From the NCBI GenBank assembly GCA_027452205.1, contig DAIDGV010000024.1, positions 30,750-94,749 of the forward strand: 64,000 nucleotides of DNA. The letters run 5' to 3'. A program made the translations under genes and the position numbers. Below, piece by piece: positions 4,491 to 55,879 of the stretch. Below the pieces are notes generated by a model, which did no database searches, was not told the DNA's origin, and worked only from the letters and a program-made list of their open reading frames with translations. This DNA comes from a candidate division FCPU426 bacterium. Lineage in GTDB: Bacteria; Oederibacteriota; Muellerivitia; Muellerivitales; Muellerivitaceae. Within the stretch, counting starts at the first letter, position 1. Each line of letters begins with the position of its first letter.

Positions 4491-4525
4491 GACGGTTATT
4501 TTAGGTCCTTAAGGAAGTACGGAAA

Positions 4526-4558
4526 TAAAAAAAGCCACCCCGGAAGGACCGGGATGGC
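4526..4558 (-). terminator. rho-independent terminator downstream of rplY
   Basis: Minus-strand RNA GAGCCAUCCCGG-UCCUUC-CGGGGUGGC followed by UUUUUUU. A 10-bp stem with one G·U pair. Confidence 0.6.
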
Positions 4559-4581
4559 TCTGGAATGACTTAAAGTGCGGC

Positions 4582-7866: not shown

Positions 7867-9966
7867 TCAGGGCTTTGGAACGGGGCTTTTCATCGTTAAA
7901 AGCAGGTTCGGTAAGACCTGTTGTCTCTTCACCGGTGTCGGTCTTAAGTGATAGATCGCCCAGGGTCCTTGCTCATAGACCAGGTCCGTCCGGTGCTGGA
8001 TCAAATCGTCCAACTTGGCCCACTCTTCGTTCTTTAAAGGAAAGTAATCCGGGTCCTGTTCGATCAATCGTTGGCCTTCTTGTCCCGAGACCACCAGGTC
8101 GTCGATGCCCATTTCATAAAGGCGGTGATAGATCCCCTCACCGTCTTTTTCTTGACCGGCCAATTCCCTGAGGGCTTGTTGGTCATAGATCGTATTGGCG
8201 TAAAAATCCCGGCGGTAATAAAGACTGCGAGAATCCCCCACCAAAAGGATCCGGTCCCGAGGGGCGGTCACTTTCCCCACCGCCTCGGCGAGGCCATAGT
8301 AAGAAAGGGTCTGGGGATTGGTCTCCAAATATCCCGCACGGTTCTTGACCCCCAGGACCATCTGATCCCATTGGTAATAATCCACGCTTACACGCAAGAG
8401 TGAAAGGAAGCTGAGGGCGCCGAAAACCACCAGGAACCAGGACCACCATCGCACTTTGTTTTTTTCAAGCAGATCCAGGGCCAGTCCGATCTCGACCACC
8501 AACAACACGCAAGCCGGTATGGCCAGCCTCAATTGATGGGATACCGCGAAGCAAAGGAGAAGATAAGAAAGACCGGTCCAGCCCACCCAACTGGAAGAAG
8601 AGGAAGATGGCCGGGCAATGAACCAAAGGGGCACAAAAGCCAGGAGCAACGGTCCCACGGTTTTATCCAGGCTTCGGGTAAAAATTTGGACGACCCAATC
8701 ACCGAAAGAATGATCCATCACCCAGGGGCTCTCATGAGCGATCATCAATGCCTGTTCTTGTACTTTGGAAAAATACATTCCGCCGAACCATTGGGATAGA
8801 TAGGGATAAACCGGATTGCCCGTATAAGCCGCGTTCTTGAGGAACCAGGGCATCACGCACAGACCCACCAGCACGAGGGTGCCGATCCAGCGTTTCCAGG
8901 GCAGGGCAAACCCGGACCGGGCCCAGACCACGAAGCCCGCCAGCCAAACCACTCCCACCCCCAGGACAGCGGTTTGTTTAACCGTCCAAGCGGCGCCACC
9001 CATCAACCCGGCCAACATGAACCAATTCTCCCTGCCTTCGGCCATGGCTTTGCGGAGGGAATAAACGAAGAGAAGGATGAAAAAAGCTAGCACCACGTCA
9101 TTTTGGGCGGACCAGACCGTGGTCGAAAAAAGCGGCAGGAAGAGAATCGAAAGACCCGTTAAAACGCCCGTTGTTCGGCTTCCCTCTTCAGCCACCCAGG
9201 CCCCCGCGGCCAGGGACGTCCAAAAGAGGAAAAAGATATTCAAACCCTTGGCCGCTTCGGTTCCCTGCAGGACCATTCCGTTCCAAAGGTACAGTTCCGC
9301 GCCGAAAGGGAAACAGGTGAAAAAGTTGCCGGGGGCCTCGGCCAAACCGTGATGGAAACCCCAAAAACTGAGGGTCGAAAGATGATAGACCAGTCCGTCA
9401 AAATAGGTCACGGGAGTCCAGATCTGGGCCCATTCCAGGGCGATAAAACCGCAGGCCAGCGCGATCAACCAAGGAGTACTCGTGATATCCAGCTTCCACG
9501 CAAGCGTCCCCTTCAAGACCGGGTCTTCCCGCCACAGATCGACCAAAGCCCAAAGACAAAAAACCGTGACCAGTACCACATCGAAAGGACCGTTCCAAAG
9601 ACCGTTCAGCCCCGATCCCATCCAGAACAGATCGAGAAAAACCACTCCCAAGGCCGTTTCAAAACAAAAGCGGAGGACTTTCGAACCGAAGTTCAGACCC
9701 AGTAATCGCAAACCATATCGGCCCAACCGCCAAGTGGCCAAAGCCACCGAGCCGCAGACCAAGGTTGCCTTTAAAGACCCCCAAAGGTTGGAAGCCCAAA
9801 GAACTCCTTGGGCCTGTCTGAGGTCTTGGGACAGGACCGAAATAAAGGACAGGTCCAGGGAACGCGGCGAGAAATAGAGAAAAAGGGCAAAAAGACACCA
9901 AAGGGAGAATATCCAAACGCCAAAAAGGCCCAATGGCTTGCGGATGGATTCGAGGAGATTTCGCAA
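7867..9966 (-). CDS. hypothetical large polytopic membrane protein, possibly a glycosyltransferase or polymerase
   Basis: 699 aa; at least 12 hydrophobic helices followed by a C-terminal soluble domain of about 200 aa. No firm family assignment from sequence alone. Confidence 0.5.
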   Translation of the reverse strand: MRNLLESIRKPLGLFGVWIFSLWCLFALFLYFSPRSLDLSFISVLSQDLRQAQGVLWASNLWGSLKATLVCGSVALATWRLGRYGLRLLGLNFGSKVLRFCFETALGVVFLDLFWMGSGLNGLWNGPFDVVLVTVFCLWALVDLWREDPVLKGTLAWKLDITSTPWLIALACGFIALEWAQIWTPVTYFDGLVYHLSTLSFWGFHHGLAEAPGNFFTCFPFGAELYLWNGMVLQGTEAAKGLNIFFLFWTSLAAGAWVAEEGSRTTGVLTGLSILFLPLFSTTVWSAQNDVVLAFFILLFVYSLRKAMAEGRENWFMLAGLMGGAAWTVKQTAVLGVGVVWLAGFVVWARSGFALPWKRWIGTLVLVGLCVMPWFLKNAAYTGNPVYPYLSQWFGGMYFSKVQEQALMIAHESPWVMDHSFGDWVVQIFTRSLDKTVGPLLLAFVPLWFIARPSSSSSSWVGWTGLSYLLLCFAVSHQLRLAIPACVLLVVEIGLALDLLEKNKVRWWSWFLVVFGALSFLSLLRVSVDYYQWDQMVLGVKNRAGYLETNPQTLSYYGLAEAVGKVTAPRDRILLVGDSRSLYYRRDFYANTIYDQQALRELAGQEKDGEGIYHRLYEMGIDDLVVSGQEGQRLIEQDPDYFPLKNEEWAKLDDLIQHRTDLVYEQGPWAIYHLRPTPVKRQQVLPNLLLTMKSPVPKP

Positions 9967-13201: not shown

Positions 13202-13954
13202 CTACTTGGCAGTCTTTTCCGGCGGGGTCACGCCGAATTGGGCATCTACCAACGAAGCGATGACCGAATGCCCCAGGTTGTTCGGGTGCACATCCCCGTT
13301 CACGAAATATTCCGGATGGCCCATAAAGGCCGTATAGACATCGGCCACTTTCACATTGTTGGCCGCCGCCACTTCCCGGATCGACTTGTTGAATTCTTGC
13401 AAGATCCCGGCGGGTTTCATGGGTAGGCAAATACCCTTGCCGCCGTTGTTCGGATCGGGAATAGTGCAGAGCACTAGGTCGCAGTGGGGATTGAACTTCA
13501 GGATCGCTTCCACGCAGGTTTGCAGTTTGCTCTTATAGGCGGCCGCGCAAGCCATGCCCTGTTCCAGGGTGGGCGGATGGTCACAAACAATGCAAGCGCA
13601 GGAGGACTGAAGATCGCCGATCCCCACGTTCAGGACCGCGCGTTCCATGGGTCCCTTATGGGCCTGCGTGACCTTATCCAGATCCGTCTGGAGGCTCCCT
13701 TTCACGGAATCGATGGTTCCTCCCCCTTGACCGTAATTGAGCAGAGTGATATGGGGATAATACTCATCTAGGTCGCCGGCCGTCAGCGAGGCGAAGGAAT
13801 CGCTCAAAGGCATCGCCTTAGCGCCGGCGGCATAGCAGTCGCCGAATACACCGAAGACCGTGTCTTTCGGGGCGTGGCGGTAAGGCAGGGTGCCGCAGCC
13901 GGCCCCGATCAAAGCGATGGTCAACAATAGGATCGATCCGATTCTCATTTTCAT
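13202..13954 (-). CDS. SGNH/GDSL-family hydrolase lipoprotein, with Cys at the nucleophile position
   Basis: 250 aa; lipoprotein-like signal (LIGAGC). Block I reads FGDCYAAG (GDS→GDC), block II is NYGQGGGT, and block V is DGVHPNNLGH. Confidence 0.6.
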   Translation of the reverse strand: MKMRIGSILLLTIALIGAGCGTLPYRHAPKDTVFGVFGDCYAAGAKAMPLSDSFASLTAGDLDEYYPHITLLNYGQGGGTIDSVKGSLQTDLDKVTQAHKGPMERAVLNVGIGDLQSSCACIVCDHPPTLEQGMACAAAYKSKLQTCVEAILKFNPHCDLVLCTIPDPNNGGKGICLPMKPAGILQEFNKSIREVAAANNVKVADVYTAFMGHPEYFVNGDVHPNNLGHSVIASLVDAQFGVTPPEKTAK

Positions 13955-14020
13955 GGGTAACCTTTGGCAGGAATGTTCAACGAGGACTTATATTATCACT
14001 TTTCTCCGGGACACTGAAGT

Positions 14021-15040
14021 TCAAGGCCCTCCGGGCCCATAAGGTCCCCCCGGCACACGGGCATGGTCCAGGGTCCTCGCGAACTCCCGGTTGAATTTCT
14101 TCCGACCCTGGTCATTCAAGTGGGCCGGATCGGAAAAGAGCTTCCAGGAATAGATGGGGGCTTTCGGGTCCAGGATGTGGAATTGAGGGATCCTTTGTGC
14201 CGTCTGGGATAAGTAGAGTCGAAAGTCGCGGATCACTTGCGCTTTTATATGAGGCACCGAAGCCTCGTTCACGGGCATGTCCGCGAAATAGACCGGTATG
14301 CCCGCCTTCCCTAAAAGGTCCAGCGTCCTTTGAAAATAGAGGTCCACCACCGGGCTGACATGGAACCCCTGCAGTTCGGTGTCGTTGTTCAACTGCCGCG
14401 AGCCGTCCATCTGCGGGAAGGAATAGTGTCCCCGGTTTTGGACGACCAATTCCAAAGCTTCCCGGTTCTCTTTCTCACGGACGCCGTAAGGCTGGGCAAA
14501 GAACGAGGAGACCGAGTAAGAAGGGAACCCGCGGGACAGTAAGAAGGAATAAAGGTCCTGTTGGAGACCCCACAGGCCCGGGTCGGTGATGGTCAATTCT
14601 TTATCGCCCTTCTGGCGGATGTTCCCTTCGACCTCGTCGGCCTCGGGGCCGGTCAAGAGCCCGAATTTGACCGTGTTCTCCCAGTAAAAATCCGGATGGA
14701 CGAAATGGTAAGCGCTGAAAGAAAGCAATACCGCCGCCGGTTTGACCGGGGCCTTCAGGAGCTGGCGGACGAGAAAATAACTTTCAATGGGGGTACTGCC
14801 GCTCATACCGAGGTCGACCACCGTCGGCCCCAACCGATCGGGCGCCAGGTCGTTCATCACCATGGAATCGCCGAACAGCACCAGGCCCGGACGGGAATAA
14901 GTTTCGATGAGCTTTTCTTTTCCCTGGAGGATGGCGTAATCCCGGCTCAGATAAGACAAGCGGTGGTCCACCGCCCATTTCCAAACCCCGCCGAAGACCG
15001 AGGCGAAGAACAACGTGAAAACGATCAAATAGGTTCTCAT
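14021..15040 (-). CDS. DltD/AlgJ-like SGNH protein (partner of the MBOAT)
   Basis: 339 aa; N-terminal TM anchor, VLFGDSMV block I, C-terminal DPAHLNDQG block V. Immediately downstream of the MBOAT gene, as in dltBCD, algIJ and patAB. Confidence 0.65.
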   Translation of the reverse strand: MRTYLIVFTLFFASVFGGVWKWAVDHRLSYLSRDYAILQGKEKLIETYSRPGLVLFGDSMVMNDLAPDRLGPTVVDLGMSGSTPIESYFLVRQLLKAPVKPAAVLLSFSAYHFVHPDFYWENTVKFGLLTGPEADEVEGNIRQKGDKELTITDPGLWGLQQDLYSFLLSRGFPSYSVSSFFAQPYGVREKENREALELVVQNRGHYSFPQMDGSRQLNNDTELQGFHVSPVVDLYFQRTLDLLGKAGIPVYFADMPVNEASVPHIKAQVIRDFRLYLSQTAQRIPQFHILDPKAPIYSWKLFSDPAHLNDQGRKKFNREFARTLDHARVPGGPYGPGGP

Positions 15041-15051
15041 TCCCGCCCTTT

Positions 15052-16641
15052 CTAGAACTTGAAGTAAAGAAATTCACTGTTGCCGGTGATCATCAAGAGG
15101 GTCATGCTGGCCAGCAAAGCCAAAGCGAGGGCCCAGCCCCAATTGTTGCGCCAAACAAAGGATAGGACCGGCTTCTCGGCCTTGATCTTGGTCAAAGAGG
15201 CTTTCTCCGCGTCGAAAAGCTGAAGGACGTTCGGAAAGAAAAGGATGATCGCCATCCCGACCGCCAGGCTCAGCCAGCAATTGGTGAAATTCCAATAAGG
15301 CACCGTTATCCCCAGGTAATCGAGCACCGACTCGACCGGGCCCGAAAGTCCACCCACGCTGTCCCCCGTTCCCCGTCCGATCAGGGATTGGATCAGGTTC
15401 CAGGCGTCCCGCAGGTTCTTGGCGCGGAAGAAGACAAAACTGACCAGGACCGCCGTGTAGGTGAGCGCCCATTTCCAAAGGCCGTCCAAACCGCGCAACA
15501 CCGGGGAGGAAACCGTCTTTTTGGGGCCGAACCAGCGCCAGAGATGGTTCACGCTAAGATACAGGCCGTGCAGCAGGCCGAAGATCATGAATTGAAGACC
15601 CGCCCCGTGCCAGATCCCCACCAGGGTCATGGTCACCAGGGTCGGTCCCGCCAGCATCTTGAGGAATCCCTCGGCGGTGATATCGCCGGGTCTCAAAAGG
15701 CTTTTGCCTTGGGCCGCCCGGCGGCGGATGACCCAAAGGGAGATCGGGTTGTAAAGGTATAGGGTCAAATAACGGGTCAGGGAAATGTGCCAGCGCTGCC
15801 AAAAGTCGATGATGCTGCGGCTCTTGTAGGGCGAGTCGAAATTGGCTGGGAAGAAGATGTTGAACATACGGGCCAGCCCCAGGGCCATTTCCGAGTAACC
15901 GGCGAAGTCGAAATAAAGCTGGAGCGAATAACAGGCCACTCCCGCCCAGGCTTCCAGCAGGTGTTTCTCGCCCGTGTTCCGGAAGACATCCGCGGCAATG
16001 GCGGACAGGGGGTCCGCCAAAAGGACCTTTTTGGCCAACCCGAGCACGAAAATGGAAAGGCCGATGGCGATATTGTCCCAGCGGAACCGGTAGGTCTGTT
16101 TCTCGGCGAATTGGGGCATCATTTCCCGGTGATGCAGGATCGGTCCAGCGATCAGGTGCGGGAAAAAAGTCACGAAGAGCAGGTATTCTAGGAATCCCCT
16201 TTCCTTGGCGCTTCCGTCCCGAACGTCGATAAGGAACCCGATCTGCGTGAAGGTGAAAAAGGAAATACCTAGGGGCAGGATCAGGCTTCCCCAAAGCGGT
16301 CCCGCGTAAAGGGTCCGGTCATGGAACCAAGACAACAAGGCCAGCAGGTATTTGTAATAGAAGAGCGCGCCCAGGTTGGCGGTAACACCTAAAGCGAGGA
16401 TCCAGGAACAGGTCCGGGGCCTATTCCCCAGTACCTGCATGGCATAACCGCAGGCGTAATTGAAAAGAATGGAGGCCACCAACAAGATCAAGAAGACCGG
16501 CGACCACCAACCGTAGAAGAAAAGGGAAAGGAACGCCAGCCACCACTTGGCGGCGGTCTCATGGGAAAGGCCTAATAGGTAATAGACCGCCAGGGAGGCC
16601 GGGAGGAAGATGAAAAGGAAAAAAAGTGAGTTGAAAAGCAT
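15052..16641 (-). CDS. MBOAT family membrane-bound O-acyltransferase (DltB/AlgI-like)
   Basis: 529 aa polytopic protein with the MBOAT signature region (…FWQRWHISLTRYLTLYLYNP…) including the conserved His. Confidence 0.8.
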   Translation of the reverse strand: MLFNSLFFLFIFLPASLAVYYLLGLSHETAAKWWLAFLSLFFYGWWSPVFLILLVASILFNYACGYAMQVLGNRPRTCSWILALGVTANLGALFYYKYLLALLSWFHDRTLYAGPLWGSLILPLGISFFTFTQIGFLIDVRDGSAKERGFLEYLLFVTFFPHLIAGPILHHREMMPQFAEKQTYRFRWDNIAIGLSIFVLGLAKKVLLADPLSAIAADVFRNTGEKHLLEAWAGVACYSLQLYFDFAGYSEMALGLARMFNIFFPANFDSPYKSRSIIDFWQRWHISLTRYLTLYLYNPISLWVIRRRAAQGKSLLRPGDITAEGFLKMLAGPTLVTMTLVGIWHGAGLQFMIFGLLHGLYLSVNHLWRWFGPKKTVSSPVLRGLDGLWKWALTYTAVLVSFVFFRAKNLRDAWNLIQSLIGRGTGDSVGGLSGPVESVLDYLGITVPYWNFTNCWLSLAVGMAIILFFPNVLQLFDAEKASLTKIKAEKPVLSFVWRNNWGWALALALLASMTLLMITGNSEFLYFKF

Positions 16642-41637: not shown

Positions 41638-44600
41638 TTAAAAAAGCGAAACCTGTTTGGAATCGGGCATATTCTTGAGACATCCCGTTTCCTTAAGGAT
41701 CTCAATGACGTTCTTGTTCACCCCGCAGCGCTCCGTAATGTCCTCAATGGAGGTATAGGGGCCCTTTTGGCGATCTTCCTTGATGGATTCCGCTGCGGTC
41801 TCGCCCAACCCCGGCAAGCCGATCAGCGGTGGGCGAAGCATCTTCTCCCCGTTGGATTCCTCGACGAGGAACTGGCTACTGTCGGATTTATAGATGTCGA
41901 CCGGCAAGAATTTGAATCCTCGGGCATAGACCTCTTCCACCACATCCAGCACGGAGGCTTCGTCCAGTTCTTTGTTCGTGGGTTTTTCCAGGGAACGGAT
42001 CAATTTGATGCGGTCCTTGGTACGGCCGAGACCGCCGCAAGCCACGATCGCGTCAAAACCGAAAGCCTTATTGGTGAAATAGTCGGCGTAAAAAGCTAAG
42101 GGATGATGCACTTTGAAATAGGCGATACGGAAACTCATGATGCAATAAGCCACCGCGTGGGCTTTTGGGAAGATATATTTGATCTTCCGGCAGCTTTCGA
42201 TGTACCAGACCGGGGTCTTCACATCCTTCATGGCTTGTTCGTATTCGGGTTTAAGACCCTTGCCCTTACGCACATCCTCCATGATCTTGAAGGCCAGAGC
42301 CTCGTCCATACCCCGGCCCACGAGATCGTTCAACATATCATCCCGGGTCGAGACCACTGTGGCAATGGTGGCGGTCTTGTTCTTGATGAGGTCTTGGGCA
42401 TTGCCCAACCAAACGTCCGTACCGTGGGCCAATCCCGACAGACGCACTAAATGCTCGAACTTGGTCGGTTTGGTGTCCCTCAACATGTCCATGGCGAAAT
42501 TGGTGCCGAACTCGGGTACGCCTAAGGTACCCAGATCTTTGTCGATCTTGGTCTTGAGATTGAGGGTCGAGGTGTCGGAAAAAAGTTTCATCGTTTTTTC
42601 GTCGTTCAACGGAATGAAGATGGGATCAACGCCCGTCATGTTCTGCAGGCGCTTCAGGCTGGTCGGATTATCATGGCCGAGAATGTCGAGTTTGACCAAA
42701 CAGTCGTGCATACTGGCGTAATCGAAATGGGTCGTGACGATCTCGCCATCTTTATTGTCCGCCGGATGCTGCACCGGGCAAACGTCCGTGATCTCGATGT
42801 CTTGAGGAAGAATGACGATACCGCCCGGATGCTGACCGGTGGTTTTTGAAACCCCTGAGCAGCCCTTGACCAACCGGTTGAGTTCCGCGTTCCGGGCCTT
42901 TTTCCCTTGTTCTTCCACATATTTCTTCACAAAACCATAAGCGATCCGGTCTTGGACCGCCGAGATGGTACCCGCGCGGAAACAGTGGTCCTTGCCGAAA
43001 AGTTCTTCTACATATTTATGGGCGTGGTGCTGGTACTCGCCGGAGAAGTTCAGGTCGATATCCGGCATCTTGTCTCCCTTGAAACCCATGAAGACCTCGA
43101 ATGCGATACTGAACCCGTCCCGGATCATTTCTTTGTCGCACTTTGGACAGTTCTTGGAAGGCAGGTCCACCCCCGCAGTCGAGGCGGGTTTTTCGGGGAA
43201 CTCATGATGAAGGTCTTCCGCGCAGCGCCAATGCGGCGGCAAGGGATTGACCTCGGTAATGCCGCTCAAGAAAGCCACGAAAGAACTGCCGACGGACCCA
43301 CGGCTTCCAACGATGTATCCGTCCGACAGGGACTTGGTGACCAGCTTCATCGCGATCACATAGAGCGTCGCGAACTTGTTATTGATGATGGCATCTAATT
43401 CCTTGTTGAGACGCTTCTCAATAAAGGCCGGCAAGGTCTCGCCGTAAAGAGCATGGGCCTTGTCGATCGCGGTCTTTCGCAGCTGCTCGTCGGCCCCTTC
43501 CCAATTGGGAGATAAGGTCTTGGTGGGCAACGGCTCCACATCCTCGATCATCGCGGCGATCTTTTGCGGGTTGGTCACCACCAGCTCGTGGGTGATCTCT
43601 TCGTCGAAATAGGAAAAATCATCCTTCAGCTCATTCGTGGTCTTGAAAAAAAGCGGGGCCTGGCGTTCAATGCCGTAACCCATTCCCGCTTGCAGGATCT
43701 TGCGGTAAACCCCGTCCTGGGGTTCGATAAAATGGGAGTCACCAGTGGCCACGACCGGCTTGCCCAGCTTTTTGCCGGTCTCATAGATGACCTTGGTCAG
43801 GGATTGAAGCTCCTCCATGTCCTTGACCGTCCCGTCGGAGATCATGAACTCGTTATTGGCGCAGGGCTGGATCTCCACGTAATCGTAAAACTTCGCCACT
43901 TCTTCGATAGGTTTGGTCTTGTGCAGCAAATGCTGCCAAATCTCGCCCTGTTCGCAGGCCGACCCGACCACCAAACCTTCGCGGTGCTGTTCTAGTAAGG
44001 CCTTCGGGATCAGGGGACGTTTATAGAAGTACTTCATGTGGCTTTCAGAGACCAATTGATAAAGGTTCTTGAGGCCTGTGCGGTTCTTCACCAGAAGGAT
44101 GATGTGGTATATCTCCATGCCCCGTTCGCGCTTGAACTCATCCACGAGATAGCCTTCGATGCCCAATATCAGCTTGATCCCATGCTTTTTCGCGGCCGCC
44201 TTGGCGTCCGGATAGGCCTGGACCACCCCGTGGTCCGTAATGGCGATCGCCGGATGTCCCCATTTGGCGGCCCTTTCGATCAAGGCTTCGATCTTCGAAA
44301 GGCCGTCCATCCGGCTCATCTGCGTGTGGCAGTGAAGCTCCACCCGTTTCTCTGTAGCTGTATCCATACGGCCCGCAGGCCGTCCCACTTTAACAATATC
44401 CTTTGCCGTCAAAGTCAGCTCGTCGGCCTGGTACTTATCGAACCGAAGGTCCCCCCTCACTTTGACCCAATCCTTCTCTTTTAACCCGCCTTTGAATTTT
44501 CCGTCGTTCTCGTGAAAGAGCCGGATATCCAGCGAGTCATTGAAATCCGTGATGGTCATCTTGACCAAATGTCGTCCGCTACGGGTTTGGAACTCCTCAT

Positions 44601-45375
44601 ACAGGATGATCTCGCCCTCGACCACGTAACCATTGGCCTCGTCGGTCACGCTCATAGTCTGGGGGTCCGCGGCGATAGTGCGGCCAAAGATAAGGGTCGA
44701 AATTTGGGCCTTGGGCGCGTTCGCTTCTGCCGGTTTTTGTTCGGGTTCGGGAGGTAATTCGGGCATGACTAGGGAGTTGATCTCAAGCTTCACTTCCAGT
44801 TCGACACCACAACGGGCCCGCAGGACTTCTTTAGTGAACTTTTCACATTGGCGGCGTTCTAACTGCTGGCGGGCCAGCTCATGGGGCACTTGGATCAACA
44901 AGGTCGGCCCCTCGACCTTGAATTGATAATGGGAGAACCACCCTTCGGCGATTTCCGCATCTTCCATCAGACAAAAAACAAAATCCTTTTGATGGCAAAC
45001 CAGATAATCCGCCGGCGCCATGACCCCGGCCAAATAATGCACGTCCAGCACTACGCGGTTCACACCGGGCATACTTTCTTTTAAATGCGTGGAGACATTG
45101 GTATAGCATTCGGCGCTCACGGGCTTGGGCATACGCAACCGAAGGACCAGGATTCCCTTTTCGGGATAGATCTGGACGCCCAAAACCTCGGACTCCATGA
45201 ACTTTTCTTTTTCATGGCACTCGAGGGGGATCTGTTGAAGTAATTGGTAAAAAGGAGAGGCGGATGTTTCGGTTTCCGGGGACGACGGACTGCTGACGGG
45301 TGTCATCCTGCCTCCATCAAAGATCATGTGGGAATGGGTCAAAGGAGTGAGCGAAGTTCTTTTTGAACTATACAA
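41638..45375 (-). CDS. polC: DNA polymerase III alpha subunit, PolC-type, lacking the inserted 3'-5' exonuclease domain
   Basis: 1245 aa. An N-terminal domain plus OB fold precede the PHP domain. …VELHCHTQMSRMDG…KWGHPAIAITDHGVVQAYPDA…KKHGIKLILGIEG… is near-identical to the Firmicutes PolC PHP. The PHP region is contiguous with no DEDD exonuclease insertion. The C-terminus carries PolC-type tandem HhH (…GVNKNVIEILKETGCL…QVSLF). Confidence 0.85.
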   Translation of the reverse strand: MYSSKRTSLTPLTHSHMIFDGGRMTPVSSPSSPETETSASPFYQLLQQIPLECHEKEKFMESEVLGVQIYPEKGILVLRLRMPKPVSAECYTNVSTHLKESMPGVNRVVLDVHYLAGVMAPADYLVCHQKDFVFCLMEDAEIAEGWFSHYQFKVEGPTLLIQVPHELARQQLERRQCEKFTKEVLRARCGVELEVKLEINSLVMPELPPEPEQKPAEANAPKAQISTLIFGRTIAADPQTMSVTDEANGYVVEGEIILYEEFQTRSGRHLVKMTITDFNDSLDIRLFHENDGKFKGGLKEKDWVKVRGDLRFDKYQADELTLTAKDIVKVGRPAGRMDTATEKRVELHCHTQMSRMDGLSKIEALIERAAKWGHPAIAITDHGVVQAYPDAKAAAKKHGIKLILGIEGYLVDEFKRERGMEIYHIILLVKNRTGLKNLYQLVSESHMKYFYKRPLIPKALLEQHREGLVVGSACEQGEIWQHLLHKTKPIEEVAKFYDYVEIQPCANNEFMISDGTVKDMEELQSLTKVIYETGKKLGKPVVATGDSHFIEPQDGVYRKILQAGMGYGIERQAPLFFKTTNELKDDFSYFDEEITHELVVTNPQKIAAMIEDVEPLPTKTLSPNWEGADEQLRKTAIDKAHALYGETLPAFIEKRLNKELDAIINNKFATLYVIAMKLVTKSLSDGYIVGSRGSVGSSFVAFLSGITEVNPLPPHWRCAEDLHHEFPEKPASTAGVDLPSKNCPKCDKEMIRDGFSIAFEVFMGFKGDKMPDIDLNFSGEYQHHAHKYVEELFGKDHCFRAGTISAVQDRIAYGFVKKYVEEQGKKARNAELNRLVKGCSGVSKTTGQHPGGIVILPQDIEITDVCPVQHPADNKDGEIVTTHFDYASMHDCLVKLDILGHDNPTSLKRLQNMTGVDPIFIPLNDEKTMKLFSDTSTLNLKTKIDKDLGTLGVPEFGTNFAMDMLRDTKPTKFEHLVRLSGLAHGTDVWLGNAQDLIKNKTATIATVVSTRDDMLNDLVGRGMDEALAFKIMEDVRKGKGLKPEYEQAMKDVKTPVWYIESCRKIKYIFPKAHAVAYCIMSFRIAYFKVHHPLAFYADYFTNKAFGFDAIVACGGLGRTKDRIKLIRSLEKPTNKELDEASVLDVVEEVYARGFKFLPVDIYKSDSSQFLVEESNGEKMLRPPLIGLPGLGETAAESIKEDRQKGPYTSIEDITERCGVNKNVIEILKETGCLKNMPDSKQVSLF

Positions 45376-45474
45376 CCGCCACCAAAAAAATCAATGGTTT
45401 TAAACCCGCCAAGCGGAACAATATAAAATATTTATACGAACTCGCAAAAGGTCAATAATCGGGGCAAATAAATT

Positions 45475-46290
45475 TTACGGCTCAAAAAAGATCCCGAGTC
45501 CCCAATAACTTTCCGGGGACTGATAGAACTGACCATAAGGGCTGTTCCCGGTATAAAAAACAAGAGCTGTCTGAATGGACTGATGGCTGTCCCGGTGCCA
45601 CTTATATTGTAGCCCGATCTGCAAAGTTTGATCGACCACACCTCCCGCCTCACCCAGGATCTTGATGTCATAGGTCGCGTAACCGCGGATCTGTGTACCC
45701 AAGATAAAATGGGAGAAATCGGTATAACCTTCGATACCGCCGTGGAAAAAAAGCCGCGGGTCATTTTCATCCGGGGACAAGTGGGTCCAATAACAAGGTC
45801 CGCCATAGATCCTGAAATTATCAAAAAGATGATCGGAAAATGTCAGTCGGAGACTTTCCCTGGAATAGATGATGTGGGGAAATTGGTAAAAGAACTCGTC
45901 CCCCAGATGGGAACTGACATGTTCATATTCCAACCGGCCAGAAAAGGTCCCTGCGACATAACTGAAGTAGGTTCCCAAGTACCAATCGCTGACCCGTAAC
46001 GGAAAGATCGCGTTACCCAAAGAATCCAATTGGAGATAAGAATCACCCTCGATACCCCAGCCCCATTGGGACGCGTCCTGGGGCTGCCATTGAAGGATCT
46101 CGATCGTTTGGCCAATGGAGCCGTCGTAATGGTTCTTGTCCGGCTGAGCGATGATGCCATACTGCGGCTCCCGCAGGTCGCCGATCAAAGGTTCGAACAA
46201 GGGTTCCGCTGGCAAAAAAGTCCATCGATCAGCCCAGGCGCCCGAGCTCGTGGCCCAGAAGAAGAGGAGAAGGATGATCTTTTTCTTCAT
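45475..46290 (-). CDS. hypothetical secreted protein, paralog 1 of tandem pair (possible outer-membrane protein)
   Basis: 271 aa; signal peptide MKKKIILLLFFWATSSGAWA. Shares with its neighbour W-FLP…P-IGD-RE, …HLGD…, and a C-terminal aromatic-rich …YGQFYQSPESYWGLGIFFEP. Confidence 0.55.
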   Translation of the reverse strand: MKKKIILLLFFWATSSGAWADRWTFLPAEPLFEPLIGDLREPQYGIIAQPDKNHYDGSIGQTIEILQWQPQDASQWGWGIEGDSYLQLDSLGNAIFPLRVSDWYLGTYFSYVAGTFSGRLEYEHVSSHLGDEFFYQFPHIIYSRESLRLTFSDHLFDNFRIYGGPCYWTHLSPDENDPRLFFHGGIEGYTDFSHFILGTQIRGYATYDIKILGEAGGVVDQTLQIGLQYKWHRDSHQSIQTALVFYTGNSPYGQFYQSPESYWGLGIFFEP

Positions 46291-46302
46291 GTCGCTCGGT
46301 CC

Positions 46303-47139
46303 TTAAAAATCGAAAAAGGTTGCCAGGCCCCAATGAGAATCTGGCTGGTTATAGAATTGGCCGTATTGGCTCAATCCGTTGTAATAAAGGATCGCCATGC
46401 GGATAGCCCGGGGCTCGTTCGGCGAAGCTTTCCACTCGATACCCAATTGGAATTCCAGGTCCCAAATGGAATATTCAGCGTCCCATTTGCCATAACCAGT
46501 GAGATAGGACCGCATGGAACTGGAATCGATCTTCCAATAGGGGGAATAGAACTCCGTTCCAAGGGAAGCGTAATATTGGACCGTGTCGCCCACCACAAAA
46601 GGTAGGTCCCAAATACCCGCCCTTGAATAGACCCGGAAATAGTCGCAAGGTTCGAAGGAGACGGTTTCCTCGATAGCTTCTCGCGAATAATTCACGGCCG
46701 GACTATAAAAAAGAGGGATTTGGATACCTTGAAGAGAATCGCCCAAGTGAGTGCTTTCATGGAAGGCGTCGAGCTTGAAGGAAAAGTCGCTCAAACAACT
46801 CGAAAGGTAGGTGCCGATATAAAAATCCCCGTCCCGCATCGGAAAGGTGGCCCCATCCTCATCCAACAGGATGAAAGCCGAGGCGAAAAGTCCCCAACCG
46901 AACTGGATATCCTCTTGGGGCGCGTAACGGATCAATTCCAAGCTGCCGCCGACTTGGCCTTCATAACGGACCGAATCCAAATGAGCGGTGATACCCGTCA
47001 GAGATTCCCGAAAATCCCCGATCATAGGTTTGAAGACCGTACTCGAGGGTAAAAAAGACCAATCCGAAGCGCCAGCCCACAGCGGTGACGTTCCAGAAAG
47101 AAGGATGAGGAGGGAACTAACCTTTAAGAATTTTTTCAT
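46303..47139 (-). CDS. hypothetical secreted protein, paralog 2 of tandem pair
   Basis: 278 aa; signal peptide. Alignable with paralog 1 along its length. C-terminus …YGQFYNQPDSHWGLATFFDF. Confidence 0.55.
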   Translation of the reverse strand: MKKFLKVSSLLILLSGTSPLWAGASDWSFLPSSTVFKPMIGDFRESLTGITAHLDSVRYEGQVGGSLELIRYAPQEDIQFGWGLFASAFILLDEDGATFPMRDGDFYIGTYLSSCLSDFSFKLDAFHESTHLGDSLQGIQIPLFYSPAVNYSREAIEETVSFEPCDYFRVYSRAGIWDLPFVVGDTVQYYASLGTEFYSPYWKIDSSSMRSYLTGYGKWDAEYSIWDLEFQLGIEWKASPNEPRAIRMAILYYNGLSQYGQFYNQPDSHWGLATFFDF

Positions 47140-48271
47140 AGGCGCTGATCATGCGTTTGGCCATCGAGGTTGAGGACCATTTATCCGCTTCCGATAAAGT
47201 TTCGGATTTTTTCTGGTCGTAAAGCTTCGGGTCGGTCAACATCCGGCGCACCGCGTCGGTGAACTCGTCCTCGTTCAGTTTGGTCACCAAGCCACCCTTG
47301 CTGGACGCCATCACGTCCTTGATGCCCATCTCGCCTACAGCCACCACCGGCGTACCCGCCGCCATGGCCTCGGTCACGACCAACCCTTGGGTCTCGGTAA
47401 TGGAAGCGAACACGAACAGGTCGGATCCCGCGTAACAATCGCGCCAATCCTCTTTGCTGAGATACCCGGCGAAATGAACGATATCTTGCATTTTGAGTTC
47501 ATCGACCAGTTTTTCCAAACGCTTCTTGGCGGCCCCTTCCCCAGCGATGAGGAAACGGATCTGAGGGATCTCCGGACGGAGACGATGGACGACCTTGATG
47601 AGGAAATCAATGTTCTTCTCTTCGGCGACCCGGCCCATGAAGAGCAGCAATTTATCGCCCGGTTTATAACCTTTAAGGTTCCGGAAACGTTCCCGGTCCC
47701 GTCCCTCGAAACGTTGAAGGCGGATGCCTGTCGGGATGACCTCGATGGGTTTCGTCACGTTATAGCTCAACAGAACGTTCTGCATTTCAGTGGACGGTGT
47801 GATGAGCAGGTCACAAGAGTTGCAGTATTTTCGGCTGGTGGACTTGGCATACCAAATACCCAGCGCTTTGGGCAGGAACCAAAGGTAATGTTCGGTATAA
47901 GCGGCGAAAAGCGTGTGATAGGTATGAACGACCTTGGCCCCGCTTTTGCGGGCCCATTTCACCGCAGGGCCGCCGATCGTGAATGGCGTCTGGGTATGAA
48001 CGATGTCGTATTTCTCATCGATGAATTGTTGGACCAGCTTTTTATCCTTGCTCGGCAGGCCCAAACGGTCTTCCGGATCGAAGAACAAGTACATGGAAGG
48101 AAAGCGGAAAACCTTATAGTGGTCGCTGTCATCGATGGAATTGGGAAAAGCAGGGGCGTAAATATGGACTTCGTGGCCTAACTTGCCGAATTCCTCAGCG
48201 AAAATCTGGGTAGAGGCGGCGACCCCGTTGATGCGGGGAAAATAGGTGTCGGTGACCAAGGCGATTTTCAC
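47117..48271 (-). CDS. glycosyltransferase family 4 (GT-B, retaining)
   Basis: 384 aa. N-terminal MKIALVTDTYFPRINGVA sugar-acceptor domain. C-terminal E-x7-E-like donor-binding region (…GEGAAKKRLE…ETQGLVVTEAMAAGTPVV). Confidence 0.8.
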   Translation of the reverse strand: MKIALVTDTYFPRINGVAASTQIFAEEFGKLGHEVHIYAPAFPNSIDDSDHYKVFRFPSMYLFFDPEDRLGLPSKDKKLVQQFIDEKYDIVHTQTPFTIGGPAVKWARKSGAKVVHTYHTLFAAYTEHYLWFLPKALGIWYAKSTSRKYCNSCDLLITPSTEMQNVLLSYNVTKPIEVIPTGIRLQRFEGRDRERFRNLKGYKPGDKLLLFMGRVAEEKNIDFLIKVVHRLRPEIPQIRFLIAGEGAAKKRLEKLVDELKMQDIVHFAGYLSKEDWRDCYAGSDLFVFASITETQGLVVTEAMAAGTPVVAVGEMGIKDVMASSKGGLVTKLNEDEFTDAVRRMLTDPKLYDQKKSETLSEADKWSSTSMAKRMISAYEKILKG

Positions 48272-48289: not shown

Positions 48290-50017
48290 CTAGGGTGTGC
48301 AGAACTTCCATTCGACTTCGGCCACTTCTTTCACTTTGTTCATTACGTCGGCCACTACCACTTTGGCCACGTCCTTTTCCCGGCGGCGTTTGATCTCGAC
48401 CAGGCCTTCTTTAAGGCCCCGCGCGCCAACCCGTACCGAAATAGGGAATCCTAGCAGGTCCGCGTCCTTGAACTTGAACCCAGCGGAAGCTTCCATGCGG
48501 TCATCATAAAGAACCTCATAGCCTGCCTGTCTTAATTTTTCGTAAAACTCGTCGGCGATCTTGGCCACTTCCGGCTCCGCCGGGTTCAGGCAAAGCAGGT
48601 GAACTTGATAAGGCGCCGTTGCGATAGGCCAGATGATGCCATCCGCATCATAATGCTGCTCGATGGTTGCCGCTACCGTGCGGGTCACGCCGATGCCATA
48701 ACAACCCATGACCGCTTCTTTATCTTTGCCGTCCTCGCCCAGGTACACGCACTTCATGGCTTGAGAATATTTGGTGCCTAGTTTGAAGGTTTGGCCCACT
48801 TCGATGCCCCGCCCCACTTTCAATTCTTTGCCGCATTTCGGGCAACCATCGCCGTTGATCACATTACGGAAGTCGCCCCACTCGGGTTCTGCAAAGTCTC
48901 GTCCAAATTCCACACCGGTCAAATGGATATCTTTCTTCAATCCGCCGGTCACATATTGGTGACCACCCTGTAAGGCCTTGTCCGCCAGAATCTTCACTCC
49001 CGACAGGCCCACTGGGCCGGCGAAACCCACCGGGGCTTTGGTCACTTCATAGACCTTTTCCCCGCTCGCCAAGGCGATCTCGGCCGCTTGCAGGTGATTT
49101 TGAACTTTCACTTCGTTCACATCATGGTCGCCCCGCACCAGCACCACCACCGGTTTGCCATCCGCGATGAAGACGAGAGTCTTAATGAATTGGCTAGCGG
49201 GCAATTTTAAAAGAGCGCCCACATCCTCGACCGTGTGTTTGCCCGGTGTGGAGACTTCTTGAAAAGGTCCGCCCGCGGCCGCGGTCGCGTGGGGCGTGGG
49301 ATTGCCGAAAGCTTTTTCCAGATTGGCCGCGTAATCGCAGGAAGAGCACATGGCCACCGCTGCTTCGCCGGTGTCAGCCAACACCATGAACTCATGGGTA
49401 AAGCTGCCTCCGATAAGACCCGAATCCGCCTCGACTGGCGAGAAGTTCAATCCACAGCGTTTAAAGATGCGTTTGTAAGCTTCGACCATGATCCAATAGG
49501 TCTTGTCCGCCGCCGCGTCATCGACATCGAAGGAATAACCATCCTTCATCAGGAACTCACGGCTGCGCATCACGCCAAAGCGGGGGCGTACTTCGTCGCG
49601 GAACTTGGTGGCGATCTGGAACAGGTTCATCGGTAGTTGTTTGTAGCTCTTGAGTTCCCGGCGGACCAGATCCGTGATGACCTCTTCGTGGGTAGGCCCC
49701 AAGGCGTAATCCCGCTCATGACGATCCTTGACCCGCATCAGTTCTTTTCCATATTTCTGCCAGCGGCCTGTTTCCTGCCACAATTCCGCCGGGGTCATGA
49801 TAGGCATCAGCACTTCTTGCGCGCCCGCCCGTTCCATTTCCTCCCGGATGATCTGGTTGATCTTGAGGATGACCTTCTGGCCCAGGGGCAGGTATTCATA
49901 GAAACCCGCCGCGACCTTGCGCATCAACCCGGCCCGAAGCATCAGCTTGTGGGACGGGATCTCCGCTTCTTGGGGTGTTTCTTTAACGGTGGGAATGAAG
50001 GCTTTCGAAACGCGCAT
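48290..50017 (-). CDS. proS: proline--tRNA ligase (bacterial type with editing domain)
   Basis: 575 aa; class II aaRS motifs, INS editing domain and C-terminal anticodon-binding domain. Confidence 0.92.
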   Translation of the reverse strand: MRVSKAFIPTVKETPQEAEIPSHKLMLRAGLMRKVAAGFYEYLPLGQKVILKINQIIREEMERAGAQEVLMPIMTPAELWQETGRWQKYGKELMRVKDRHERDYALGPTHEEVITDLVRRELKSYKQLPMNLFQIATKFRDEVRPRFGVMRSREFLMKDGYSFDVDDAAADKTYWIMVEAYKRIFKRCGLNFSPVEADSGLIGGSFTHEFMVLADTGEAAVAMCSSCDYAANLEKAFGNPTPHATAAAGGPFQEVSTPGKHTVEDVGALLKLPASQFIKTLVFIADGKPVVVLVRGDHDVNEVKVQNHLQAAEIALASGEKVYEVTKAPVGFAGPVGLSGVKILADKALQGGHQYVTGGLKKDIHLTGVEFGRDFAEPEWGDFRNVINGDGCPKCGKELKVGRGIEVGQTFKLGTKYSQAMKCVYLGEDGKDKEAVMGCYGIGVTRTVAATIEQHYDADGIIWPIATAPYQVHLLCLNPAEPEVAKIADEFYEKLRQAGYEVLYDDRMEASAGFKFKDADLLGFPISVRVGARGLKEGLVEIKRRREKDVAKVVVADVMNKVKEVAEVEWKFCTP

Positions 50018-50125
50018 GGACTTCCTTACAAAGAAGATGGACCGGACAAAAGACGAGGGGCCCGGCCTAGGCCGAACCCCTCAAGTCGACTATTTTCACC
50101 AAAGCCGGAAAGACCGCAAGACCTT

Positions 50126-51223
50126 TTACTTCTTCTCGGTCATTTCCTTTTGGCGCTTTTTGATCTCTTCGATCAGGTTCGGGACCAGGTCTTCTTCTTT
50201 CAGGCGGCGTTTGATCTTCCCGCCCTTTTCAATGATGACGCCATGGCCCTTTTCGGAGCAAAGGCCGACATCCGCCTCGGCGCCTTCGCCCAGTCCGTTG
50301 ACCACGCAGCCCATGATGGCTACCCGCATGGGGGTCTTCATGGTGAGGGTCGCGGTCTCCACTTGATCGACCATCTTCTCCAGGTCCACATGGCAGCGCC
50401 CGCAGGTGGGGCAAGCCACGATATCGACCCCTTCTTTACGGTAACCCATGGAACGGAGCAGGTGGGTCGCCACCTTCACTTCTTCCACCGGGTCCGCGGT
50501 GAGGGAAACACGGATCGTGTCGCCGATACCATCGGCCAACACCGCGCCGATACCCGCCGCGCTCTTGGTCGTGCCTTGCATCTTGGTCCCAGCTTCGGTC
50601 ACACCGACATGGAACGGATAGTCGCATTGTTCAGCCAAGAGACGATAGGAACGGATCATGGTCGGCACATGGGAGCTCTTCACCGAGATGATCATTTGGT
50701 GGTAATCAAAGGTTTCGATGAACTTGATATGGCGCATGGCCGATTCGACGATGGCTTCCGGGGTCGGGTGCCCGTGCTTTTCGAGGATGTCTTTTTCGAG
50801 GGAGCCCGAGTTGACACCCACCCGCATGGCCACATTGTGCTTTTTGCACTTTTCGACCACTTGGGCCAAACGGTCCATCCCGCCGATGTTACCCGGATTG
50901 ATGCGGATCTTATCCGCTCCGGCGTCGACCGCGCCTAAAGCGATCTGGTAAGCGAAATGGATATCCGCCACCAGAGGAACGGTCATTTTGGCTTTGATCT
51001 TATCGAGCACTTTAAGGGACTGTTGGCTTTCGACCGTCACGCGGATGATCTCGCAACCCGCGTCTTCCAGTCGTTTGATCTGATCGATGGTCTCTTGCAC
51101 GTCATAGGTATGGGTATTGGTCATCGATTGAATGGAGACGGGGGCGCCGCCGCCTACTTGGACTTTACCCACCATCACCGCGCGGGTCTTCCGGCGGGGG
51201 ATCTCGTAGAACATTTCAGCCAT
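50126..51223 (-). CDS. ispG: 4-hydroxy-3-methylbut-2-en-1-yl diphosphate synthase (GcpE)
   Basis: 365 aa; TIM-barrel N-domain (…VSIQSMTNT…) and C-terminal 4Fe-4S Cys motif (CPTCGRC…). Confidence 0.92.
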   Translation of the reverse strand: MAEMFYEIPRRKTRAVMVGKVQVGGGAPVSIQSMTNTHTYDVQETIDQIKRLEDAGCEIIRVTVESQQSLKVLDKIKAKMTVPLVADIHFAYQIALGAVDAGADKIRINPGNIGGMDRLAQVVEKCKKHNVAMRVGVNSGSLEKDILEKHGHPTPEAIVESAMRHIKFIETFDYHQMIISVKSSHVPTMIRSYRLLAEQCDYPFHVGVTEAGTKMQGTTKSAAGIGAVLADGIGDTIRVSLTADPVEEVKVATHLLRSMGYRKEGVDIVACPTCGRCHVDLEKMVDQVETATLTMKTPMRVAIMGCVVNGLGEGAEADVGLCSEKGHGVIIEKGGKIKRRLKEEDLVPNLIEEIKKRQKEMTEKK

Positions 51224-53479: not shown

Positions 53480-55879
53480 TTATCGGATAGAGCTGTTCAC
53501 GGGGCCCAGAGCGGACAAGGGGACCGGTCGATATCGGTTTTCCCTGGGGGTTTTCCACGCCAGGTTCATCGCCGAAAAATACCCATCGCCCATTTGGAAC
53601 CCGATCTCAAATCGGTGCCATCCCTTTTTCAAGGTCATCGCACCTGAGGGAGAGGGTCCCCAAGGAGTTAAGGGTTTTTGGTCGACGGACAGATTCGCTT
53701 TGTCCGTGGATTGGGTGAGGGCCAAAAAGGAATATTCACCGGTCGCGGGAGCGAAGATTTGACCCGACCAGCGCGCCGTGGAAACGTTCGAGTAAAAATC
53801 TGCTTTGGAAACATAATTGACCACCGGATCCCATTGTTCAAAAACCACAGAGTCTTCTTTTTCATATTGGACCAACAAACCGCGATCGAGCGATAACTGG
53901 GTCAAACAATTCTCGTCCAAGGGTATCCTCCGCCCCTCCGGATCCGTCTGCCATAATTGAAGGGTGTCCAGGTCCGCCTTGGTCACACGCACTTTCAAGG
54001 AGTGGTAACCCCGGATTAGGGCAACAGCCTTATTCCCTCGCACTGGATTCCCATCGACCTCCCAAAGGACCTGACGGGCCCCTCGGGAACCAAAACGATA
54101 GGACCCACTTTCCGGGACGAACCAACAAGCTGCGCCGGTCCTTCGAAAGGCCTTTTTCGCCGAAGACCCGGGCGTCCATTTCATCCCGCGTGAGGCGCGC
54201 AGCAGGGCCGAAGTCACTTTCACTTCATAGACCAAGGGCGATCCTTGGGGATCATTTAGAACGGTTACGGAAGCATCCGGATAAAGTTCTTTCAAAAGCT
54301 CCAGGATGCCCGCTTCCCCACGGGTCAGAATGAAACAAACGCCTTCCTTGGATAAAGGCGCCTGCGCGAAGGCCAGATCCCGGGGCCAATCCCATTGCCG
54401 GAAGTCCTTCAGGTGATCGAAAGCTAGGAACCGAACGGTCAAATGGGGTCCGAAACTGGGGCAAAGGATCATTTGATATTGGGAACCCAGCCGGGCGATC
54501 TCCTGACCCGCCAAGGTTGGTCCCAGGTCAAAGAAGATCGGGGCACGATTATCTTTTTCTTGGATCCGGAAAAGCTCGTCCGCGTTAAGACCCGCGATAA
54601 GGACGCAACACAGCACCGGCAACACCGCTTTCCATGGTCCTTGGCCAACCCGCTGGGTAAGCGACCACAAGGCTTGGCCCGCCCAAAAAAGCACACAAGG
54701 TAACAGTGGGAACACGTGGCTGATGTTGGTTGGGTCCGTGGAAAGGATGTCGGTCAGGCTAAAACCAAAGAAGACGGCCAAAGTATAGAAAAACACCCTT
54801 TGCCGCCAATTCCACAGTGCCCAAACCAATCCGATTACGGCCAAAAAGTGCGTGACCGGGTCCAACATGGGCATTTGATCGGTCGTCTGTTTGGGGGAGG
54901 GGTCTCCTTGACGGCCAAAAAGTCCCAGGAACTTTCCTGTATTTTCGACCAAAGGCATCAGGCTTTTCTGTTCGACAATGGTCCAACCAACGAACTGTTC
55001 CGCCGGATAACCCTGGCCAAATTGGGGCGTCTGGGCCCAATGGCAGATTAGCGGGGATAAAACAGCTAAGAACGTCAGTCCAAAGGCCAGCCATTTCCCT
55101 TTTTGGTCCTGGAAAGCCTGCGGTACACGGGTGATCTCATAAAGAAAGACCAACACAACGATGACCGGAAAGACCCGGTAGGAATAATACCCATAGAAAC
55201 CCAACCCGACCCAAAGACCCGCGGCCCAAAAGGGCCAACGCTTGCCGCTCTTTGATCCATGTGACAGCAAAAAAAGACTTCCATAAGCGAAAAAGAACGG
55301 AAGTTGATCGATCCCTGCCCAGCGGCAAAGATAAGCGTCCCAATGACAGACCGCGCCCAAGGCCGTGGCACAGAGGGCCGGCCCCACTCCAGCCAATTTC
55401 CGAAAAAAAAGATAGGTCACGATCAAGGCCAGGAATGAATAGGTCGCCGTCAACAAAGCGGCGTTCAAGGCGGTCGGTTGGAAGAATTTGAACCACAACG
55501 CCCCCGGATAAAGGGGCAAGGAGGGACAGTCCAGCAAGGGGGTCTCAAAGAAAGGATGCCAACCGTTCAAGACCATCAAACTGCCCAAAGCGGGCACTGC
55601 CTGGTCCAAGCACAGTCCACTGGGAAACCGGTCCAAGTGGTAGGTTCGAAAGAAGACTGCTGCAACAAGGATGACCGGCAACAAGGTCATTTCCGCCCAA
55701 GGCGAAAGTGGGTTGGGGTTGTCTTTTTTTGAAGTGTCTGTCTTAATGAAAAGGACGGCGGAGAGGACAAAAAGGGACAAGGAACAAAGGGTCAAAATAA
55801 AACCGCCGTGCTGGGCCAATAAGAACTGACCCAGCACGGCGGATAGAACGACCAGGAAAGGGTAAAGAATACCGATCAC
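53480..55879 (-). CDS. GT-C-like polytopic membrane glycosyltransferase fused to C-terminal PA14-like carbohydrate-binding domains
   Basis: 799 aa. N-terminal region of about 480 aa has about 12 TM helices and an ArnT/PMT-like first loop (…FRTYHLDRFPSGLCLDQA…). The C-terminal region of about 300 aa has two beta-rich repeats with PA14-like G-x-Y-x-F…W-x-G-x-H signatures. Confidence 0.6.
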   Translation of the reverse strand: MIGILYPFLVVLSAVLGQFLLAQHGGFILTLCSLSLFVLSAVLFIKTDTSKKDNPNPLSPWAEMTLLPVILVAAVFFRTYHLDRFPSGLCLDQAVPALGSLMVLNGWHPFFETPLLDCPSLPLYPGALWFKFFQPTALNAALLTATYSFLALIVTYLFFRKLAGVGPALCATALGAVCHWDAYLCRWAGIDQLPFFFAYGSLFLLSHGSKSGKRWPFWAAGLWVGLGFYGYYSYRVFPVIVVLVFLYEITRVPQAFQDQKGKWLAFGLTFLAVLSPLICHWAQTPQFGQGYPAEQFVGWTIVEQKSLMPLVENTGKFLGLFGRQGDPSPKQTTDQMPMLDPVTHFLAVIGLVWALWNWRQRVFFYTLAVFFGFSLTDILSTDPTNISHVFPLLPCVLFWAGQALWSLTQRVGQGPWKAVLPVLCCVLIAGLNADELFRIQEKDNRAPIFFDLGPTLAGQEIARLGSQYQMILCPSFGPHLTVRFLAFDHLKDFRQWDWPRDLAFAQAPLSKEGVCFILTRGEAGILELLKELYPDASVTVLNDPQGSPLVYEVKVTSALLRASRGMKWTPGSSAKKAFRRTGAACWFVPESGSYRFGSRGARQVLWEVDGNPVRGNKAVALIRGYHSLKVRVTKADLDTLQLWQTDPEGRRIPLDENCLTQLSLDRGLLVQYEKEDSVVFEQWDPVVNYVSKADFYSNVSTARWSGQIFAPATGEYSFLALTQSTDKANLSVDQKPLTPWGPSPSGAMTLKKGWHRFEIGFQMGDGYFSAMNLAWKTPRENRYRPVPLSALGPVNSSIR

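Follow-up and report, generated by a model that had tools for sequence, protein, structure and literature searches.

On its minus strand, a 64,000-nucleotide stretch of DNA from a candidate division FCPU426 bacterium (assembly GCA_027452205.1, contig DAIDGV010000024.1, positions 30,750 to 94,749; hereafter the window) carries the genes ispG, proS, GT4, A, B, polC, rimP and nusA in this order. The subject of this work is the tandem pair A and B, located between a family 4 glycosyltransferase (GT4) gene and polC and coding for proteins of 278 and 271 amino acids (aa), respectively. The pair belongs to a known uncharacterised family, DUF1207 (Pfam PF06727), and shows a distinctive paired arrangement. 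Both proteins are, with high confidence, Sec-exported outer-membrane (OM) β-barrels of 12 strands. Moreover, they conserve a polar patch on what should be the lipid-facing side of the barrel, from which we tentatively propose that they act as outer-leaflet lipid esterases of the OMPLA/PagL design.

Two tandem DUF1207 paralogs

The two proteins share 36% identity over their full length (BLASTP E 4e-50), far beyond chance, and both open reading frames (ORFs) lie on the minus strand (Table 1). An earlier note, made from the letters of this DNA, had described them as tandem secreted paralogs of 271 and 278 aa, which is correct, and the motifs that it quoted are all found: W-x-F-L-P...P-[ML]-I-G-D-x-R-E near the N-terminus, an internal HLGD, and YGQFY..P[DE]S[HY]WGL[AG][TI]FF[DE][FP] at the C-terminus. 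It could name no family with confidence; both proteins in fact match PF06727 above the gathering threshold of 22 bits. The scores of the two paralogs are 76.6 and 66.8 bits (E 2.4e-21 and 2.3e-18), and they align to profile positions 87-342. No NCBIfam model was matched by A or B.

Signal peptides had also been claimed for both proteins, and a heuristic agrees: each N-terminus is Sec-like, with a Lys-rich start, a hydrophobic core and a small-residue cleavage site (predicted at ..LWA/GA in A and ..AWA/D in B), and neither contains a lipobox Cys. An N-terminus of the same type (basic n-region, hydrophobic core, AXA-like site) was recognised by a crude rule in 39 of 44 homologues. Downstream of it lies a conserved segment which may serve as a plug or strap. 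In a family alignment of 125 diverse DUF1207 members, about 20-36% identical to A and numbered here as in A, this segment conserves P31, F36, A/G41, D42 and P43 in more than 100 sequences. At the other end of the protein, the resemblance to OM protein signatures that the earlier note saw in a terminal Phe applies to A (..ATFFDF); B and most relatives end in ..[YF]FDP, in which the last residue is Pro and -2/-3 is aromatic, and a Phe ending is thus not family-wide. Paralog A is mis-annotated in NCBI, where the copy (P0001) is 240 aa long and begins at Met39, cutting the signal peptide and the WxFLP segment (window 47025-47139, minus strand), both of which are kept by homologues of 280-293 aa.

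A word-indexed search returned 60 homologues, all PF06727 and all from metagenomes or metagenome-assembled genomes (MAGs), one of them being the NCBI copy of A from this very genome, while an exhaustive profile search gave 1,819 cluster representatives at E<=1e-3, of which 945 at E<=1e-10. Relatives occur in FCPU426, Firestonebacteria, Ignavibacteria and Chlamydia, and two size classes are seen, a short one of ~260-300 aa and a long one of ~350-450 aa. With ~250 mature residues, the window proteins are of the short form and lack the N-terminal extension of ~100-200 residues present in the Chlamydia-type long form, for example Chlamydia trachomatis CT_389. A BON domain, which is a putative phospholipid-binding periplasmic domain, is also carried by 3 of the 125 members (best E 5e-6), which we count towards a link with lipids. 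The literature searched for DUF1207 and PF06727 yielded one preprint and no functional study. For the Chlamydia DUF1207 protein CT_389, an independent preprint obtained the same best match (bioRxiv 10.1101/2025.07.10.664186), which we count for the family and fold.

Fold and cellular location

AlphaFold2 models were obtained for A (predicted local distance difference test, pLDDT, 82.6; predicted template modelling score, pTM, 0.78; 44-sequence alignment) and for B (pLDDT 90.6, pTM 0.84; 58 sequences). Both contain 12 long strands forming a closed barrel with two-residue periplasmic turns and longer outer loops. Furthermore, mean hydrophobicity by position in the 125-member alignment alternates cleanly in 12/12 strands. 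Foldseek comparison with the PDB retrieved generic OM barrels only, and all structural neighbours are OM barrels; at the sequence level, neither the single protein nor the family profile had a meaningful match in the PDB. Indirect hints of a diderm host come from two other products of the window, an RND fragment of AcrB type and a heptosyltransferase-like protein of family GT9. The small OM β-barrel suggested in the earlier note is thus well supported.

A conserved polar patch on strands 5 and 6

Residue D105 is invariant in the alignment (125/125), and strand 5 carries at its outer end the nearly invariant signature H-x-S-x-H-L-G-D, with H127 and H131 each kept in 121/125 members, S129 in 118/125, G133 in 117/125 and D134 in 121/125. 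At the outer end of strand 6, position 154 is Glu in 105 members and Asp in 16, that is, acidic in 121/125. Also near-invariant are R169, Y171, G194, E196, G233, G255, G260, Q261 and F262. The family signature (H-x-S-x-H-L-G-D; D105; G194; G233; G255; G260-Q261) is present in both paralogs and in 117-125 of the 125 members depending on the residue, and distant subfamilies still read ..H-I-S-A-H-L-x-D-G .. Y-S-R-[ED]-F.

The lipid-facing, hydrophobic phase of strand 5 comprises F119, F121, L123 and A125 and then continues into H127, S129 and H131, while the hydrophobic phase of strand 6 (positions 156, 158, 160 and 164) starts at E154. Apart from these four residues and S152, the lipid-facing phase contains no strongly conserved polar residue anywhere in the barrel. 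We place the patch by sequence periodicity and secondary structure; with the standard topology, in which the termini are periplasmic and the periplasmic turns short, strand 5, loop 3 and strand 6 would converge on the outer-leaflet side. Many conserved residues of the lumen-facing phase are bulky and polar (R169, Y171, Q192, E196, D216 and Q261); with the proline-rich N-terminal segment before strand 1, they probably fill the barrel.

Distribution and duplication of the pair

By scanning one genome per species, 30 related loci were collected, all from MAGs that are assigned to candidate division FCPU426 or Candidatus Firestonebacteria, or that have only a loose label or no classification. This clade is uncultured and is found in soil and peat. 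PolC and ProS of the window are 86-92% identical to those of loci L002 and L001, and 85-92% identical to those of FCPU426/Firestonebacteria MAGs, which places the window in this clade. The tandem pair is found in 26 of the 27 informative loci, whereas in the other contexts examined DUF1207 occurs as single copies.

In a neighbour-joining tree, the upstream copies (to which A belongs) and the downstream copies (to which B belongs) form two separate clades. Three genomes (L024, L027 and L028) contain a second pair elsewhere, whose members fall in the respective upstream and downstream clades; the pair was therefore duplicated as a unit. Both clades keep His-x-Ser-x-His-Leu-Gly-Asp and the Glu, and they show fixed differences at positions 71-72, 135, 137, 155, 157 and 244. 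The two clades are old, and the pattern fits two mutually dependent subunits.

Gene neighbourhood

The earlier note placed the pair between polC and a GT4 gene whose start would overlap one paralog. The location stands; however, it is the stop codon of GT4 that lies inside A, overlapping its start by 23 nucleotides (nt). The spacing is 18 nt between proS and GT4 and 12 nt between A and B, with an AGGA ribosome-binding site in front of B. A terminator-like hairpin after ispG suggests that proS begins a separate transcription unit. Taken together, this hairpin, the promoter-like site in the gap between B and polC and the close spacing and overlap of the genes make it plausible, from consensus scans only, that proS-GT4-A-B is one transcription unit.

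Across genomes, the co-occurrence with GT4 that the earlier note thought worth checking is found in 26/30 loci, where GT4 is directly upstream, in most cases with ispG-proS before and polC-rimP-nusA after. In loci L011 and L017, GT4 is present as two tandem copies, and the pair is preceded by an additional gap of ~1 kb. In NCBIfam, the window GT4 matches lipid glycosyltransferases best (MGlcDAG synthase, 156.8 bits; IagA/BgsA; GlcNAc-phosphatidylglycerol synthase). None of these scores comes near the equivalog cut-off, and no close solved relative was found. The polC product is PolC-type by NCBIfam (NF001688, 1385 bits), although it is just 1245 aa long. The exonuclease family of Pfam (RNase_T) is not matched at E<=1, its alignment to the model skips from ~residue 420 to model position 612, and it appears to be devoid of the proofreading exonuclease insert; PolC matches of similar span were found in most related loci.

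A different cassette with a single DUF1207 gene is present in Ignavibacteria-type loci (L031:1272-6847, also L035, L036 and L037), where overlapping or abutting genes code, in this order, for a polysaccharide deacetylase, a GT2 with a GT21-like domain, a radical SAM protein, DUF1207 and an M50 peptidase; in L031 a TPR protein is encoded upstream. With GT4 in the FCPU426 loci and GT2 in these, the association with a glycosyltransferase recurs in two lineages. In another lineage, DUF1207 is located between unrelated housekeeping genes. We considered and rejected an assignment of the Ignavibacteria-type cassette to the hopanoid genes hpnI/J/K, as the HpnI model gave 51 bits where 310 are required, and PgaC/IcaA matched best.

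Table 1 Features of the DUF1207 locus, in window positions
Feature	Position	Strand	Basis
DUF1207 paralog A, 278 aa, upstream copy	46303..47139	-	ORF
Signal peptide of A, about aa 1-24, MKKFLKVSSLLILLSGTSPLWAGA	47068..47139	-	sequence and heuristic; region conserved in homologues
Conserved N-terminal segment of A, WSFLPSSTVFKPMIGDFRE	47005..47061	-	family alignment
HESTHLGD, A residues 127-134, signature H-x-S-x-H-L-G-D, outer end of strand 5	46738..46761	-	translation
Glu154 codon of A, outer end of strand 6, candidate third triad member	46678..46680	-	translation SREAI
C-terminal strand of A, YGQFYNQPDSHWGLATFFDF	46306..46365	-	sequence; last model strand 266-277
DUF1207 paralog B, 271 aa, downstream copy	45475..46290	-	ORF
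Signal peptide of B, aa 1-20, MKKKIILLLFFWATSSGAWA	46231..46290	-	sequence and heuristic
Conserved N-terminal segment of B, WTFLPAEPLFEPLIGDLRE	46168..46224	-	same motif as A; model pLDDT about 95
HVSSHLGD, B residues 124-131, same signature	45898..45921	-	translation; kept in both paralog clades
Glu145 codon of B, equivalent of A Glu154	45856..45858	-	translation SRESL; clade conservation
C-terminal strand of B, YGQFYQSPESYWGLGIFFEP	45478..45537	-	sequence; last model strand 259-270
ispG	50126-51223	-	ORF
Terminator-like hairpin (13 pairs, 9 G-C, T-rich tail), ispG/proS gap, just upstream of proS	50054..50083	-	consensus scan only
proS, probable first gene of unit proS-GT4-A-B	48290..50017	-	ORF, upstream hairpin, synteny
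GT4 glycosyltransferase	47117..48271	-	Pfam Glycos_transf_1 and Glyco_transf_4
Promoter-like site, 9/12 matches, in 99-nt B-polC gap	45427..45455	-	consensus scan only
polC	41638-45375	-	ORF

Discussion

To our knowledge, only few enzymes act inside the OM, namely OMPLA, PagL, PagP, LpxR and OmpT. They shape the asymmetry of the membrane as well as virulence and tolerance to antibiotics. The catalytic residues of OMPLA, His142-x-Ser144, which from the 1fw2 sequence we take to end strand 5, and Asn156, which we take to start strand 6, are on the barrel exterior at the outer leaflet, and the enzyme is active only as a dimer. In the triad of PagL, Ser128 and Glu140 stand beside His126. His142 and Asn156 of OMPLA and His126 of PagL are described as lipid-facing triad residues in a preprint on lipid-facing positions (bioRxiv 10.1101/191650). 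As judged from periodicity, the DUF1207 patch is like this design in strand number, spacing, orientation and membrane side. The window proteins share the 12-stranded barrel with OMPLA (PDB 1QD5, 1QD6 and 1FW2; Pfam PF02253), whereas PagL is 8-stranded. PagL, the lipid A 3-O-deacylase, is however an OM barrel esterase which has His-x-Ser ... Glu on its membrane-facing surface in the outer leaflet, as in DUF1207, and its acidic Glu is closer to the DUF1207 Glu than is the Asn of OMPLA.

On the basis of this layout, we propose that each barrel presents a membrane-facing polar patch at the level of the outer leaflet, to which strand 5 would contribute His127-x-Ser129-x-His131 and strand 6 Glu154, in each case from the outer end, and that A and B would use it to hydrolyse or transfer acyl chains of outer-leaflet lipids. 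Because copies of the A and B types stay side by side and have been duplicated as pairs, the two proteins may act as a heterodimer, by analogy with dimeric OMPLA; such a dimer, a candidate only, would be made of paralogs, unlike that of OMPLA. GT4 would be co-transcribed with the pair, with A translationally coupled to it, and among glycosyltransferases it is closest to those of the diacylglycerol-lipid type. This coupling makes it possible that the substrate is, or depends on, a membrane glycolipid. We give a probability of roughly 40% to the reading as a whole, in which an esterase of OMPLA/PagL design acts on outer-leaflet lipids, may be a heterodimer and is linked to a lipid-type GT4. A more ambitious version is doubtful: DUF1207 would then be a large, so far unrecognised family of OM serine esterases (~1,800 clusters at 50% identity, including CT_389), either remote relatives of OMPLA and PagL or convergent with them, and the FCPU426/Firestonebacteria proteins would be an obligate heterodimer remodelling a GT4-made glycolipid, and hence a new OM lipid-remodelling system of an uncultured phylum.

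Several observations weigh against the esterase proposal. The geometry of the His, Ser and Glu residues, their depth in the membrane and the overlay on OMPLA are predictions from strand periodicity. The partner on strand 6 is Glu in DUF1207 and Asn in OMPLA, and the second invariant His together with the Asp could equally mean a metal site. PF02253 was not matched by A or B even at E<=1, and at E<=10 it was absent from the 25 families that the 125 DUF1207 members matched most often. An hhalign comparison of DUF1207 with a PldA profile gave a probability of 0.36% and an E value of 0.17, the His-x-Ser motifs being unaligned; this negative is weak, since the profile was shallow and built from the best 120 matches with enterobacterial sequences at >=70% identity only. 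The pair is not obligatory everywhere: locus L026 has a single DUF1207 gene (4369-5160) between GT4 and polC, which branches at the base of the downstream-copy clade, and a heterodimer is thus not required in all genomes. Finally, the GT4 synteny comes from one phylum-level clade and may reflect shared ancestry and inherited gene order rather than function.

Membership in the OMPLA family is not supported, as neither the PF02253 searches at these cut-offs nor hhalign with the shallow profile revealed similarity at the sequence or profile level; the E. coli PldA sequence used was confirmed against PDB 1fw2 and PF02253. Furthermore, DUF1207 has an extra invariant His-Leu-Gly-Asp after the Ser, and the residues of the OMPLA Ca2+ site are not identifiable in it. 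DUF1207 may therefore work like OMPLA or PagL, which is distinct from being an OMPLA. The catalytic-patch argument itself was not found in the literature, as far as we searched.

Among the alternatives, a small substrate-specific channel or exporter is the one that survives best, although we regard it as unlikely. KdgM/NanC porins are 12-stranded like the window proteins, and a channel of that kind could carry across the OM what the neighbouring glycosyltransferase makes, be it an oligo- or polysaccharide or the head group of a glycolipid. The strongest conservation is nevertheless on the lipid-facing phase (H-x-S-x-H and Glu), where a pore has no reason for it, and the lumen probably is filled by its conserved bulky polar residues and the N-terminal segment; in the lipid-facing polar patch and in this segment, DUF1207 differs from KdgM/NanC. 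No KdgM-type Pfam family was among the 25 most-matched families of the 125 members. The window GT4, moreover, is like cytoplasmic lipid glycosyltransferases and not like a processive synthase, and known polysaccharide export barrels have 16-18 strands.

The conserved cluster of His, His, Asp and Glu could instead belong to a non-catalytic OM protein, binding a metal (copper as in PcoB, or Ca2+) or anchoring lipopolysaccharide or lipid head groups, in a structural or ion-handling role. This we consider rather improbable. Ser129 is as conserved as the histidines and is located two residues past His127 on the same face, an arrangement that is that of an esterase and not of a typical metal site; His127 and His131, four residues apart on an extended strand, are probably too distant to share one ion, and no metal-resistance genes are adjacent. 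That A and B are not OM proteins at all, but soluble periplasmic proteins or mis-called or unexpressed ORFs, is hardly credible: the polymerase of the host is PolC-type, as is common in monoderms, and the NCBI copy of A is annotated without a signal peptide, yet the full length, signal peptide included, is conserved in hundreds of homologues, two independent models give closed 12-strand barrels with alternating hydrophobicity, and the RND fragment and GT9-like protein of the window fit a diderm.

If the esterase proposal were right and DUF1207 were a family of OM enzymes, a function could be assigned to ~1,800 protein clusters, including a conserved Chlamydia surface protein that is now considered as a vaccine antigen, and lipid remodelling would come to light in candidate phyla without any cultured member. 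Were the proteins only small porins, the outcome would be a routine annotation.

Other observations

DUF1207 homologues with an intact H-I-S-A-H-[LQ]-G-D are also encoded on three contigs of 481, 177 and 44 kb (L032:5001-5915, L033:5001-5933 and L038:5001-5822). These contigs look like huge phage genomes: they are filled with small unknown ORFs, all three carry HAD_SAK_2, and several neighbours in L032 match PHROG families. L032 and L033 also carry EF-G, RNA 2'-phosphotransferase, HNH and NUDIX genes. NCBI lists one of the three as a Promethearchaeota MAG. A scan of viral contigs for the phage-like DUF1207 homologue found nothing.

Elsewhere in the window, two adjacent ORFs of ~510 aa (841-3911, plus strand) have similar N-termini and no Pfam match, and are probably tandem paralogs. 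Two PMT_2 (GT-C type) proteins are encoded at 7867-9966 and 53480-55879, and the second of them has a PA14 domain. On the minus strand, a cluster at 13202-16641 codes for a GDSL-like lipase/acylhydrolase, a weakly DUF1574-like protein and an MBOAT acyltransferase, and resembles polysaccharide O-acetylation systems of the AlgX/AlgJ/AlgI type.

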